64,000 bases of DNA. Source: Eledone cirrhosa (lineage: Eukaryota). Shown here piece by piece: positions 157 to 15,785 of the stretch. A program made the translations under genes and the position numbers. The stretch lies in NCBI GenBank assembly GCA_964016885.1, contig OZ024748.1:60264001-60328000 (forward strand). The letters are read 5' to 3'. The notes beneath the pieces were generated by a model, which saw only the letters and a program-made list of their open reading frames with translations, searched no databases and had not been told where the DNA came from. Position 1 is the first letter of the stretch; each line of letters begins with the position of its first letter.

Positions 157-870
157 AGTGTAAACAAACAAAGATGGTAAAGCAACGAAAAGTGAGGAAG
201 AAAGAGTCACGTCCCAGATTTCCATGAATATAAGTTCGGTGAAATCGTGAACGAGGGAGAATAAAGACCATCAAACCTAGTCGAAATGTGAGCAAGGAAG
301 GAATTCCGTACAGGTCAAACGGGAGGAAGTAGGAGAGATAGTAGCAGAGAGTGAGTGAGTGAAGGGTGAGGAAGAGACTAACAGAGAGAGTGACTGTTAG
401 AAAGGGTAAAGATACAGAGAAAGAGGAAGCAGTAAGAACGGACCCGTCTATTTCATTCTTACTGCTTCCTCTTTCTCTGTATTTTTACCCTTTCTAACAG
501 TCACTCTCTCTGTTAGTCTCTTCCTCACCCTTCACTCACTCACTCTCTGCTACTATCTCTCCTACTTCCTCCCGTTTGACCTGTACGGAATTCCTTCCTT
601 GCTCACATTTCGACTAGGTTTGATGGTCTTTATTCTCCCTCGTTCACGATTTCACCGAACTTATATTCATGGAAATCTGGGACTTGACTCTTTCTTCCTC
701 ACTTTTAATTGCTTTACCATCTTTGTTTGTTTACACTCTCGCTCGGTCCCCTTATTTACGTGTGGCAACGACTTTCTTTAGCCGTTGCTCGCACCAACCG
801 GCGGTATATGGTCTTTAAAGCGATCAAATACCAATGATGGTTGGAAGATCATTGATGAAGGAGTACCTTT
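157..870 (+). mobile_element. Non-coding family X, copy 1, with ~280-bp fold-back inverted repeat
   Basis: 157-438 is the near-perfect reverse complement of 456-737 (17-bp spacer). The body is homologous to 914-1484 and 14642-15785, and is flanked by (CA)n and (TA)n. Confidence 0.8.
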
Positions 871-913
871 ATTAATATATATATATATATATATATATAT
901 ATATATATATACA

Positions 914-1484
914 TGATGAAGGACTAATTTTATTCATATGTAACCCATGTGCAACGACGCAGCACACCATTTTTATTATATTTATATTTTTTCCTCAGCT
1001 GCGACCTGTCTGTTTCTTTCTTACTGCTTCTCCTCTCTCTGTATCTCTCACCTTCTTTTTACCCCCTCTGCCAATCACACTCTCTCTCGGCTGGCCTCTT
1101 CCTCACACTTCCGCTCACTCGCTCTCTGCTTCTCTCCCTCTCTCACTTCCTCTCGTTTGACCTGTGTGAAATCCTTTTCTCGCTCACATCTCACCCAGGT
1201 CGGATGGTCTGTATCTCTCGTCCATGATTTCACCAAGCTTAAGCTTATAGATATCATGTACTTGTCTCTTCCTATCTTTCCGTTGCAATACCATCTTTGT
1301 TTGTTTACATGTCTCGCTCGCTTCACCCTATTTTACTTTTCCCAATAACTTTATTTAGTTATTACCCGCACCAACCAGATTTTTAAAGCGATAAAATACC
1401 AATGAAGGTTCGAAGATCACTGATGAAGGACTAATTTTATTCATATGTAACCCATGTGCAACCACGCAGCACTCCATTTTTCTT
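914..1484 (+). mobile_element. Non-coding family X, copy 2: 507-bp monomer plus ~62-bp terminal direct repeat
   Basis: TGATGAAGGACTAATTTTATTCATATGTAACCCATGTGCAAC... occurs at 914 and again at 1421. (TA)n on both sides. Confidence 0.8.
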
Positions 1485-1731
1485 ATATATATATATATAT
1501 ATATATATATATATATATATATATATATATATATATATATATATATATATATATATATATATATATATATATATATATATATATACATATATATACATAT
1601 CTCTATATATATATATACTTATATATATACATATATATATATATATACATATCTCTATATATATATATGTATATATATACATGTATATATATACATATAT
1701 ATATATATATATATATATATATACATATATA

Positions 1732-2143
1732 TAAATGAAAAGTATAGAAATTATTGTAGCGAGAAGCTAACAGTATTCCATAATATATGTGACTATAGCG
1801 TCAAAATGGGAAAATAGTTAACATAAGATATGGGAAAAATAATTCAAACTCAATTCAAAAAGATTCAGGATATAGATTTATCCAACAGAATTTAGAGAAA
1901 TCCAGGGAAAAATCAATAGAGCCTTAACTCATGATAAAACAAAGTCTAAAGTACTCATCCTTCAATTTGGGACAACTTCAAATGCTCTGTATAGTCTTGA
2001 AAAGAGTATTTCACGAAAACTTTCAGTGGGTATGATCACGGTTGGATTTCGTTCATCAGCATAGCTCAACGTGGTAACCAAGGTCTCACTGATTAATATG
2101 CCAAAAAGGGAATTTAAAAGCAGGGTAGTTTAACATCATGCGT
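1732..2143 (-). mobile_element. HHR-bearing non-autonomous element, family J (probable Penelope-like pseudo-LTR)
   Basis: Homologous to 13457-14020 and 35885-36410. The three copies share one end abutting (TA)n and differ at the other end. Confidence 0.7.
1984..2065 (-). ncRNA. Type I hammerhead ribozyme (family J)
   Basis: Minus strand: GCTATG-CTGATGA-ACGAAA..TTTCGT-GAAA-TACTCTTTTCAAGACTA-TA/CAGAGC. One mismatch in stem I and one in stem III. Confidence 0.7.
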
Positions 2144-2601
2144 GATATATATATATATATATATATATATATATATATATATATATATACATACACACAC
2201 ATATACATATATATATACATATATATATATACATATATATATATATATACTTATATATATATACATATATATATATAAATATATATATATATACATGTAT
2301 ATATACTTATATACACACACACACACACACATATATACATATATATATATACATATATATATATATATATATATATATATATATATATATATATATATAT
2401 ATATATATATATATATATATATATATATATATATATATATATATATATATAAGGATTAAAATACTGGAGCGTGTTGGAGTTAAACACCCTCTTCGTATTA
2501 TAGAAATGACAGTAAAAGGTATAGCTCAATGTAATTAAACAGAGCCGAAGAATTATGAAAGTAAAACAAAGAAGCCTTCAATACATCAAAAGTCTTTATT
2601 A

Positions 2602-2639
2602 GCCAACAATGTTTCGTCCTATTAAGGACTCATCAGGGC
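2602..2639 (-). ncRNA. Minimal type I hammerhead ribozyme (family A)
   Basis: Minus strand: GCC-CTGATGA-GTCCTTAATAGGAC-GAAAC-ATT-GTT/GGC. Confidence 0.8.
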
Positions 2640-12913: not shown

Positions 12914-13360
12914 TTAATGAATATAATTCTAACAGCACGTAAAATCCTAATATAATTTAATAATCATCTCTGGACAAGACCCGACAGAAAAAAACAATTT
13001 TGATATCACTATGGGATAATCTGACTCGGCGCAAGTAACGGACCTCGTTGGATTATTTATTAATAATGTACTGCATAGGAAAATGCCACAGATGATCAGA
13101 GTTTTATATCGCGACGATATGTTACTTTTAATTGAAAACCATAGCAATAGTGAAATTAATAGGAGAAGGAAATCCATAATACAATTTTTCAACAACTACA
13201 ACCTTAATTTAGAAATCTAGAATAATTACAAAATCGTTAACTTCTTAGACGTAACCTTAAACCTTAGCACAGGTCTTTACTATCTATTCCCCAAAATTAA
13301 CGAAAGTCTAAATTACGTAACTTTCAATTCTAATCATCCTAGAAATATTAAAAACACTAT
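12914..13360 (+). pseudogene. Penelope-like RT core (inverted 5' segment)
   Basis: Manual translation: FDITMG*SDSAQVTDLVGLF...LYRDDML...VNFLDVTLNL...YVTFNSNHP, with stops and a frameshift. Confidence 0.88.
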
Positions 13361-13456
13361 ATATATATATATATATATATATATATATATATATATATAT
13401 ATATATATATATATATCTTTCTATATATAGATAAATGTATATATATATAAATATAT

Positions 13457-14020
13457 AAATGAAAATAGAGAAATTAATGTAAGCAATATGCCAACAATAA
13501 TTCAGACATATAAATGACTATACCATAAAGATGAAAAAACTTTTAATGTAAGATATGGGAAAAGTAATACAATCCTAATTTAAAACAAATCAAGAAGAGA
13601 AACTTTATCCTCAGACTTAGTGTAAGTTGGGGGAAAAAGCAGTACAATCTTAACTCGAAATAAAATCAAGAAGAAATACTTAATCGTCAATTTGGGGAAA
13701 ACTACAAATGCACTATTTAGTCTTAAAAGACTATTTCATGTAACTTTTCAGTGAGGTTATTCACGTTTTGTATCGATCTCCAGTAGCGGTCAACACATTA
13801 ACTAGATGGTCACTGTTAAAATGCCGGAAGGGAATTAAAAGAAGGCATACGACAGCGTGTAAAATTGAAATAACAAAACACACGTGGAAGAACGCTAGTG
13901 ATGGCGGGATGAAACTAAAAGCTGTTTACAAGAAACAGTCAAAACATTCCGAAAAAACTCAACAAAAATATGGAGCTCAGCATAAGCAATATTATCACTT
14001 TTTTATTTTATTTTTTTAAA
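13457..14020 (-). mobile_element. Family J element, diverged copy with decayed HHR (13711-13788)
   Basis: Aligns by eye to 1732-2143 and 35885-36410. Core reads CTGGAGA...GAAATAGTCTTTTAAGACTAAA. Confidence 0.65.
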
Positions 14021-14149
14021 TGTATATATATATATATATATATATATATATACATGCGAAGAAATACCTATAATGGCTAGTAGACCACTGATGATGGATA
14101 GTCCTGGCTTCTATTTCTAATTCTTCATTTTAATATATATATAGGGCGG

Positions 14150-14612
14150 GTAAAATTCCCGGGATCCATGGACGAGTCTCTGACCCTCATTATCGATGCC
14201 ATGTCCTGCGTCTCCAACAGACCAGTGTCTGACCTTAGAGTATCAACATATGTTAACTTCGGTCTTCCTCTTCCAGTGTGTCGATGAAGGGGCTCCCACG
14301 GGAGCACTGAATGTAGTGTCAACTGTGGTATTCGGTGAGCATGTCCAGCTAACCTCAGTCTCCTCTGTGTCACTTTTGAGCTAACATTTGGGAGGCTCCT
14401 GTACAGCTCCGAGTTCTTCATCCTCGGTGTATACTGATTAATGTTCAGAGGTATCCTCAGCATTCTCGTATAGCACCCATCCACCATCTGAAGATTACTA
14501 ATGTAGCCGAGAAGCCGCTATAATTGGTTGAGGACTTCCTCTATTTCGGAGCAAAGATTGGGAAGACGGAAGATGATGTGGTCGAGAGGAAGAGCAGAGC
14601 CTAGGCGGCTAT
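14150..14612 (-). mobile_element. RTE-type LINE 3' fragment with 5' inversion
   Basis: Minus ORF VDGCYTRMLR..RRLRLAGH..GRPKLTYVD. The plus-strand segment 14490-14612 reads VEDFLYFGAKI..EDDVVERKSRA. Confidence 0.8.
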
Positions 14613-14641
14613 ACATATATATATATATATATATATATATA

Positions 14642-15785
14642 GTGATAATGGAGCTGCGGCGTTGCAAAATGGAATACATATGAAAAAGTGGGTCCTCATC
14701 AGTGACCCTCCAACCGTCCTCGGCATTTCATCGCTTTAAGGGCCATATGCCTCAGGTTGGTGCGAACAACGGCTAAAAAAAGTCGTTGGGACACGTAAAT
14801 AAAGGGGGACATTAGAGTAACAACAAAAGGGTTATAGTAACGGAAAGTGAGTAGAAATAGACAAGTCCCAGATCTCTATGAATATAAACTCTGTGAAATC
14901 GTGAACAAGAGACGAAAGACGAAGATTTCACAGAGTTTATATTCATAGAGATCTGGGACTTGTCTATTTCTACTCACTTTCCGTTGCTATAACCCTTTTG
15001 TTGTTACTCTAATGTCCCCCTTTATTTACGTGTCCCAACGACTTTTTTTAGCCGTTGTTCGCACCAACCTGAGGCATATGGCCCTTAAAGCGATGAAATG
15101 CCGAGGACGGTTGGAGGGTCACTGATGAGGACCCACTTTTTCATATGTATTCCATTTTGCAACGCCGCAGCTCCATTATCACCATATTTACACATATACT
15201 TTCCATGCTGCCTGTCTGTTTCGTTCCTTGTATCTCTACCACTTTTAGCAGTCTCCTCTCTGTTACCCTCTCCTCAACTTTCACTCACTCATTCTCTGTC
15301 ACTACCTCTCCTCCTCCTCTTTCCTCCTCCTCCTTCAAGTTTGACCTGTGTGTAATTCTTTTCTCGCGCAGTCTTGACCGAGCTGGTAATAATTTTTTTT
15401 CTCTCTCTTTCGTCTGCGACTTCACAAAACTTGCGTTTACCGAATTCGTAGACCAGTTTTCGTTCTCTCTCTCTCTCTCCTTTTTCCCCCCTGTCGAACC
15501 TGGGCGAAATTCTTTCCTTGCTCACATTTCTACCAGGTTCGATCGTCTTTCGTCTCTTGTTCACGATTTCACAGAGTTTATATTCATAGAGATCTGGGAC
15601 TTGTCTATTTCTACTCACTTTCCGTTGCTATAACCCTTTTGTTGTTACTCTAATGTCCCCCTTTATTTACGTGTCCCAACGACTTTTTTTAGCCGTTGTT
15701 CGCACCAACCTGAGGCATATGGCCCTTAAAGCGATGAAATGCCGAGGACGGTTGGAGGGTCACTGATGAGGACCCACTTTTTCAT
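14642..15785 (+). mobile_element. Non-coding family X, copy 3: ~1.35 tandem 641-bp units plus ~280-bp inverted arm
   Basis: 14924-15144 repeats at 15565-15785, and 14642-14921 is an inverted copy. (TA)n on both sides. Confidence 0.85.

Follow-up and report, generated by a model that had tools for sequence, protein, structure and literature searches.

The hammerhead ribozymes closest to those described here are of the non-circularly permuted types SGC and CSG, named after the order of the cleavage site (S), the GAAA block (G) and the CUGAnGA block (C). Both types cleave in vitro; SGC was recovered from metatranscriptome-type data and CSG from metagenomes (two examples, metagenome DNA only), and, in the accessible portions of that study, neither was placed in the genome of a known organism (Eckert 2023, PMC10085705). 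The closest mobile elements are the Naiads, a clade of Penelope-like elements (PLEs). According to the accessible portions of Craig 2021 (PMC8557442), PLE insertions are characterized by a pseudo-long terminal repeat (pseudo-LTR or pLTR), an inversion and a 30-40-bp tail, Naiads target (TA)n, and no canonical hammerheads were found in them, some consensi being logged as HHR_core or HHR_half_core. Here, we analyzed a window of 64,000 nt (the whole stretch of DNA under study) from Eledone cirrhosa (assembly GCA_964016885.1, contig OZ024748.1, positions 60,264,001-60,328,000, forward strand), animal DNA rich in microsatellites, in which an earlier annotation made from the letters only (the sequence-only reading, covering 157-15785) had delimited three copies of a repeat, family X. 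We propose that family X is probably a non-autonomous Naiad-type PLE with a non-circularly permuted hammerhead at its 3' end, organized in a retrozyme-like manner. This agrees with the suspicion of the sequence-only reading that the repeat is a non-autonomous element of Penelope-like architecture with a variant RNA-processing motif; among PLEs, it is most like a Naiad.

We found that copy 3 holds a complete hammerhead core. The CUGAUGA (C3-A9), GAAA (G12-A15) and U16-H17 elements are all exact and are arranged in the order cleavage site - GAAA - CUGAUGA, i.e., the non-circular permutation of type SGC (Eckert 2023). The orders CGS, GSC and SCG of canonical type I, II and III hammerheads do not occur in family X, and the canonical reading, with GAAA after CUGAUGA, fails. 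The ribozymes of the three copies are as follows:

15032-15132, plus strand: permuted hammerhead A, intact, in the truncated forward unit of copy 3
15073-15077/15098-15102, plus strand: stem III of hammerhead A, 5 bp, including the U16-A15 pair
15078, plus strand: H17 of hammerhead A (A15078), with the cut predicted 3' of it
15079-15084/15116-15121, plus strand: stem I of hammerhead A, 6 bp, directly before CUGAUGA
15095-15098, plus strand: GAAA of hammerhead A, with U15094; its UH partner at 15077-15078
15122-15128, plus strand: CUGAUGA of hammerhead A
15673-15773, plus strand: permuted hammerhead B, intact and identical to A; cut predicted 3' of A15719, CUGAUGA at 15763-15769
762-863, plus strand: ribozyme of copy 1, decayed; C3 at 852 is T, G12 at 825 is C, the helix a strand (764-765) and loop A (802) are altered
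1337-1431, plus strand: ribozyme of copy 2, dead; a 9-nt deletion after 1377 removes the cleavage-site block, and G12 at 1393 is A

In copy 1, stems III (803-807/828-832) and I (809-814/846-851) are fully paired, and A808 represents H17. The sequence-only reading had noted a CTGATGA motif, which is present in copy 3 and not in copy 1 (TTGATGA), and had reported no matching GAAA/UH. The latter statement is wrong, as both elements occur at the positions given above; they were missed because they are located upstream of CUGAUGA. The covarying strand pairs that it listed as hairpins both exist, but GGCAT/ATGCC is stem III of the hammerhead and not a hairpin. Rfam gave no matches at the gathering threshold over the whole window. 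The Rfam scan that had been suggested as a check (E <=5, positions 1-16000) returned no hammerhead on family X, though type I motifs were found elsewhere; what it returned on family X were weak matches to microRNA, small nucleolar RNA and similar hairpins, mostly in the inverted arms. A descriptor search detected no minus-strand ribozyme in the window beyond that of the inverted copy.

The canonical stem II, built from the strand following CUGANGA and the strand preceding GAAA, is lacking in family X, where these strands can form at most one A-U or G-U pair. They pair instead with separate upstream segments, designated a' and c', and the fold is completed by the following elements of hammerhead A:

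15032-15035/15129-15132, plus strand: helix a (a'/a), 4 bp, after CUGAUGA
15036-15057, plus strand: hairpin b, flanked by a' and c'
15059-15062/15090-15093, plus strand: helix c (c'/c), predicted stem II, 4 bp, with c' as the upstream 5' strand
15064-15069/15109-15114, plus strand: helix P, 6 bp, joining the far ends of c and stem I
15070-15072 and 15103-15108, plus strand: strands of a kink-turn-like 3x6 loop between stem III and P

Along the RNA, the elements are thus ordered a'-b-c', P, III', UA cleavage site, I', c, GAAA, III, P, I, CUGAUGA, a. From these pairings we infer that helix c would act as stem II, its 5' strand being donated by the upstream segment; that the core chain, held by helix a and hairpin b, would open into a four-way junction between A9 and 10.1; and that the 3x6 loop, with tandem GA pairs, would bend stem III back to P. 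In kink-turns, a 3-nt bulge is followed by tandem GA/AG pairs between two helices. We observed this pattern in copy 3, in locus L048 (see below), in copies 1 and 2 when the population letters are used, and, by eye, in Naiad_Obim and Naiad_Ovul.

Family X shares with the SGC and CSG ribozymes (HRIMA-1 motif and variants, Eckert 2023) the full core, a short link from stem I to stem II (5 nt in family X) and a helix bridging the far ends of these stems (termed the 'interaction' helix in Eckert 2023; in family X, the 6-bp helix P), and with SGC in particular the block order. Yet, in contrast to the published SGC motif, with its uninterrupted block C (stem I - CUGAnGA - stem II), block C of family X is split, the 5' strand of stem II is supplied from upstream by way of the four-way junction, and the kink-turn-like loop connects both strands of P with stem III. 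Unlike SGC and CSG, the ribozyme also sits in a retroelement of an animal genome. The topology would fall outside the six-permutation scheme because block C is broken; as judged from sequence, the X-type fold amounts to CSG/SGC connectivity with block C opened up again. The core insertions listed in the accessible part of Perreault 2011 include none that is a helix after A9. In our literature survey, which covered few subscription journals, neither permuted hammerheads in Naiads nor an A9/10.1 junction were found described.

A six-helix descriptor with an exact core gave three matches in the window, all in copy 3, and none when the 50,095 unmasked bases were shuffled 3033 times with dinucleotides preserved; in these shuffles, stems I and III alone were matched 14 times. 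With two core mismatches allowed, the descriptor also recovered copy 1 in the 200-base stretch tested. When the window copies were compared (four rows, two of them nearly identical, with helix a left out), 5 of 28 pairs had changed on both sides (one in III, two in I and two in b), and 97% of cells were paired vs 20-47% when the rows were slid. Between copies 1 and 3, three pairs of stems I and III differ on both sides.

Raw reads of run X11 mapped on 448-1484 allowed us to compare copies 1 and 2 with the family population. Among the differences listed, the expected letter was carried by 511/522 reads at 825 and 588/594 at 1393 (both G12), 436/439 at 852 (C3), 291/296 each at 764 and 765 and 576/585 at 1339 (a'), 386/389 at 1364 and 382/389 at 1366 (c'), 530/545 at 802 (loop A) and 592/654 at 1411. 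The 9-nt block missing from copy 2 was present in 195 reads (7 starts) and in a further 123 (1 start), at a depth of 385. Contigs of run X1 agree at the substituted sites, their depth peaks over the core bins, and they include CUGACGA variants, which differ at the free N7 position; the 9-nt block was seen in only one of them. Run X9 provided 33 reads, all on a TC-rich stretch and uninformative on copies 1 and 2, and run X8 provided 22 pieces. The core defects of copies 1 and 2 are decay private to these copies; across the family population, the core is intact. The idea of a new RNA class, also put forward in the sequence-only reading, finds no support, since every conserved hammerhead core nucleotide is present, in permuted order, and the core is intact in the population.

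The insertion anatomy of family X is that of a PLE. Masked self-BLAST of the window recovered the three diverged copies, 69-78% alike over shared segments, and no further ones outside 157-1484 and 14642-15783. Both periods given by the sequence-only reading are confirmed: that of 641 bp by the identity of 14924-15146 with 15565-15787, and that of 507 bp by 914-974 vs 1421-1481 (59/61 identical, the 61-bp overlap of the partial repeat of copy 2). The same applies to the inverted 5' arms of ~280 bp in copies 1 (157-~440) and 3 (14642-14922), the latter identical to 15543-15783 at 240 of 241 positions, and to the (TA)n at the end of every forward copy. The conserved block GRTCAYTGATGARG has five exact matches, all in family X, with 0.11 expected at <=1 mismatch; a sixth match to the motif, at 52688, lies inside an unrelated open reading frame (ORF) remnant and was rejected. 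Copy lengths amount to 1.1-1.3 units here. As a correction to the sequence-only reading, the forward part of copy 1 (441-873), at 433 bp, is shorter than one unit. The parts of the insertions are:

157-440, minus strand: inverted 5' copy of copy 1, ~284 bp, starting at an internal site equivalent to 737 and abutting (CA)n
441-873, plus strand: forward unit of copy 1, 5'-truncated, ending in (TA)n 65 nt past the predicted cleavage site
913-1484, plus strand: copy 2, consisting of a short partial repeat from inside the CUGAUGA block, a 507-bp unit and a 38-bp tail (1447-1484), then (TA)n
14642-14922, minus strand: inverted 5' copy of copy 3, 281 bp; it contains the 40-bp tail as well as an intact ribozyme with its core at 14702-14696, and (TA)n borders it at 14610-14641
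14924-15142, plus strand: forward unit of copy 3, 5'-truncated (pseudo-LTR), identical to 15565-15783
15143-15182, plus strand: 40-bp tail that separates the short from the long 3' end; it contains a small AC-rich stem-loop and doubles as the start of the next unit
15143-15783, plus strand: full unit of copy 3, 641 bp, with an internally duplicated pyrimidine-rich segment
15784-15828, no strand: (TA)n target array, merging with the element 3' end through a short AT microhomology, 64 nt past the predicted cut

Two kinds of 3' ends are found, short ones (873, 15142, 15783) and ones 38-40 bp longer (1484, and 14642 on the inverted copy). The greater length of the unit of copy 3 reflects a duplication inside it (15221-15370 and the stretch from 15471 on each match copy 1), and no known protein family was matched in it (15143-15783). 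Copy 3 seems young, given an identical direct repeat and a nearly identical inverted copy. The inverted copy of copy 1 joins (CA)n rather than (TA)n, through a short AC microhomology (150-160).

Partial tandems (pLTR), inverted 5' copies and 30-40-bp tails thus mark family X as Penelope-like, and the (TA)n target combined with the lack of a canonical hammerhead corresponds to the Naiads. Naiads, especially Naiad_Obim and Naiad_Ovul, have the same partial tandems, inverted 5' copy, 30-40-bp tail and (TA)n target and, by eye, the same permuted layout at the 3' end, for which Craig 2021 (PMC8557442) recorded HHR_core, HHR_half_core or nothing. The defining protein of Naiads has N-terminal GIY-YIG, CxC and DKA motifs and an RT; unlike them, family X is devoid of an ORF, and its primary sequence resembles theirs only over short stretches within the ribozyme region. 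Animal non-LTR retrozymes (Li et al. 2026) resemble family X in that their units are non-coding, measure a few hundred bases and hold a single ribozyme each, in that their copies exceed one unit, and in their link to PLEs; they are further characterized by circular RNA in vivo. In contrast to them, family X is without a canonical type I hammerhead, their defining feature, and forms 1.1-1.3 units with inverted arms, not long arrays. Non-autonomous Chlamys elements such as MRC1 are likewise pLTR-forming derivatives of a PLE with an N-terminal endonuclease and keep its 3' end; yet they are found in green algae, target (CA)n or (C)n, and no such ribozyme is described for them in the accessible text (Craig 2021, PMC8557442).

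We then compared, by eye, the displayed passages of File S5 of Craig 2021, which show a part of the 54 Naiad consensi. The full SGC order with the four-way layout is present in seven of them (Amil, Aacu, Anas, Plae, EuTe, Obim and Ovul). The spider Naiads Ptep and Smim have the SGC order with stems I and III, the junction not being seen, and Bfor has a weak stem I. All eight nematode Naiads (Ppac, Parc, Nbra-1, -2, -3, Hcon, Hpol and Asuum) carry a clean type CSG hammerhead with a P helix, and the CSG examples of Eckert 2023 might derive from such nematode Naiad-type elements. Several bivalve and hemichordate Naiad 3' ends contain a different conserved motif without a hammerhead core. Naiad_Obim and Naiad_Ovul share with family X a similar hairpin b, the 3x6 loop, the (TA)n target and a short 3' end motif. 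Four 11-14-nt motifs of family X have no exact match in the accessible part of the Craig 2021 supplement.

The fold recurs in other loci. A core-plus-c pattern, which fixes CUGAUGA, GAAAC and the c/c' helix and leaves stems I and III free, matched at least 119 metagenome, at least 120 prokaryote and 11 viral loci. Among the matches listed, stems I and III both reach 5 bp or more in 12/119 metagenome loci, 0/120 prokaryote and 0/11 viral ones; 10 of the 12 form two families from two assemblies that resemble coral Naiads, and the full descriptor was passed by 8 of the first 130 loci. Three loose-filter matches (L064, L092 and L183) were dropped as chance; L049 and L082 pass the loose filter only, yet are members of the coral-type family. 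In an alignment of 19 of 20 related loci, 92.6% of cells are paired, as opposed to 25-48% after sliding, and helices a, P, III and I contain two-sided changes. No Naiad ORF was found within 13-14 kb upstream of 17 loci. In L048 and L118, the four-way junction occurs in sequence unrelated to family X. In L118 (2-120), the four-way SGC motif is very clean and its P helix long, and no long ORF was found in the 416 bases covered. The four-way SGC ribozyme of L048 (1831-1940), which also has the kink-turn pattern and a helix P (1868-1873/1913-1918) paired at 4 of 6 positions with two U-U, overlaps the stop codon of a non-LTR retrotransposon; downstream of it, a short TA run precedes the beginning of another ORF. 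This retrotransposon has RVT_1 and zf-RVT matches just under the cut-off and a restriction-like endonuclease tail; we take it to be HERO/NeSL-like.

The window contains further elements. An ORF fragment on the minus strand (12127-12615) resembles by eye a Penelope-like thumb with a C-terminal GIY-YIG and has no Pfam match. Small repeat families other than X carry canonical or minimal type I hammerheads at 2598-2642(-), 3636-3680(+), ~9460(-), 2059(-), 36081(+), 10740(-), 54041(+), 54405(-) and 55051(+), the first two recognized by Rfam (29.1 bits, below gathering) and the remaining ones by eye. The region 54194-55380 has a tandem and inverted architecture resembling that of family X, and further inverted-repeat insertions adjoin (TA)n at 55982-56592, with CTGACGA at 56444, and at 7596-7739. 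An uninterrupted 1141-aa non-LTR retrotransposon ORF occupies 26854-30279 on the minus strand (RVT_1 at E 6e-23, zf-RVT, restriction-like tail by eye), with a related remnant at 52411-52869. A ~200-bp repeat with a tRNA-type box, resembling short interspersed elements (SINEs), presumably those of octopus, is present in many copies (19237-19637, 32222-32529, 35100-35316, 38779-38881 and 39458-41324).

As for the cycle of family X, a multi-unit transcript would be cut once per unit, 3' of A15078 and A15719, perhaps with the assistance of a protein, and the cut units may re-ligate to circles of 507-641 nt. The reverse transcriptase (RT)/GIY-YIG protein of a Naiad would nick (TA)n and mobilize the element. 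Two internal positions, ~64 and ~104 nt beyond the predicted cut, might serve as alternative starts of reverse transcription, by analogy with Poseidon PAc, whose tail is located between two RT starts (Frangieh 2024, accessible part). If the RT then ran past one unit length, on a circle or on a tandem left uncut, this would yield the partial tandems, 40-bp tails and inverted 5' copies; the template is likely to be one of these two because copies cross the predicted cut for up to 1.3 units. Folding of the core within one unit seems slightly better than an even chance, and folding between two units slightly below one.

Several observations weigh against this reading. In family X, helices a and c are no longer than 4 bp and leave 1-nt gaps at the junction; helix c never covaries, either in family X or in the 19-locus set, where it is fixed by the search pattern. 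Helix a has zero probability in the nested ensemble of copy 3, a local hairpin (-8.7 kcal/mol) competes for its CUGAUGA block, and the folding z-scores of the core are weak (-1.7 for copy 3, -0.4 for copy 2 and -1.3 for L048). Eckert 2023 (PMC10085705, accessible part) assumed CUGAnGA to be contiguous with the stem II strand. Covariation within the window is weak on its own because of the small and partly redundant set of rows; the count of two-sided-change pairs in the 19-locus set is at shuffle level (250/500), and the covariation controls ignore relatedness. The restriction-site-associated DNA (RAD) reads sample few loci, and their species may differ from that of the window. No copy of family X begins at the predicted cut, and no Naiad ORF was detected in the window. 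In Poseidon PAc, insertion in vitro did not depend on hammerhead cleavage, which needed protein. Finally, the accessible text of Craig 2021 (PMC8557442) calls cephalopod Naiads inactive remnants, yet copy 3 looks young.

In other readings, the ribozyme would work differently. It is conceivable, at less than even chances, that the same ribozyme is active only between two units, as a domain-swapped dimer, which would refine rather than replace the reading proposed here. A rod of stem III and P would form within one unit, and its loop (cleavage site, I', c, GAA) would dock on the base of the other unit (I-CUGAUGA-a, a'-b-c'), so that concatemers are cut and monomer circles are protected. In the nested folding of copy 3, stem III and P dominate (pair probability 0.88 and 0.76), dimeric cleavage occurs in other PLE hammerheads (PMC13725137), and by a rough estimate of reach a one-molecule fold would fall ~30 A short in the coral-type loci and in Naiad_EuTe. 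However, the reach suffices for family X and Naiad_Obim, and the estimate is soft because it also fails for one nematode CSG form; moreover, Eckert 2023 (PMC10085705) likewise describes a few SGC ribozymes in which such distant ends are connected, the tested SGC cleaved during transcription, and a kink-turn would serve a one-molecule frame. Quite unlikely, in our view, is a hammerhead-derived motif that no longer cleaves and is kept as a folded signal, bound by the RT/endonuclease, that sets the internal RT start. The copies that span the predicted cut without any starting there, the 3' ends at a fixed 64-65 nt from the predicted site and the dispensable PAc cleavage would suit such a signal, but a binding site would not need the exact pattern of catalytic positions that is kept across unrelated families, nor the retention of C3, G12, the U-A pair and H17 in a population in which N7 varies.

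The carrier of the ribozyme could also be another PLE clade or a non-LTR element with a restriction-like endonuclease. The same ribozyme and loop pattern at the 3' end of the non-LTR RT element of L048, the GIY-YIG-type ORF fragment of the window (by eye) and the reported inactivity of cephalopod Naiads (accessible part of PMC8557442) point in this direction. We nevertheless consider it unlikely that family X is not Naiad-type: partial tandems, tails and inverted 5' copies are marks of PLEs, other PLE clades carry canonical type I hammerheads, as do other elements of the window, and hairpin b, the loop strand and the short 3' end motif are common to family X and the displayed Naiad_Obim and Naiad_Ovul passages (by eye). 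Chance pairing in an ordinary satellite or in a repeat resembling miniature inverted-repeat transposable elements (MITEs) would fit short helices, only three window copies and the lack of an Rfam match; it is extremely improbable in view of the 0/3033 shuffles, the 0/131 control loci among the matches listed, the compensatory changes, the intact population core and the same layout in several phyla.

On the reading of family X as a Naiad-type element with a permuted hammerhead, we tentatively suggest, as a possibility on the weaker side, that, in genomes, non-circularly permuted hammerheads reside chiefly in Naiads and in non-autonomous elements derived from them. These hammerheads might include an undescribed four-block form, with the four-way junction between A9 and 10.1 and, in some lineages, a kink-turn, that would cleave only on docking of two units or binding of an L7Ae-type protein, i.e., a concatemer sensor yielding stable monomer circles, which would also have been taken up by an unrelated non-LTR retrotransposon. 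The eight nematode cases would supply the covariation that Eckert called thin for CSG. If true, the finding gives non-circularly permuted ribozymes a first home in the genomes of known organisms, overturns the published view of Naiads as proliferating without hammerheads, explains their 'half-core' motifs, and bears on the role of hammerheads in Penelope-like elements.

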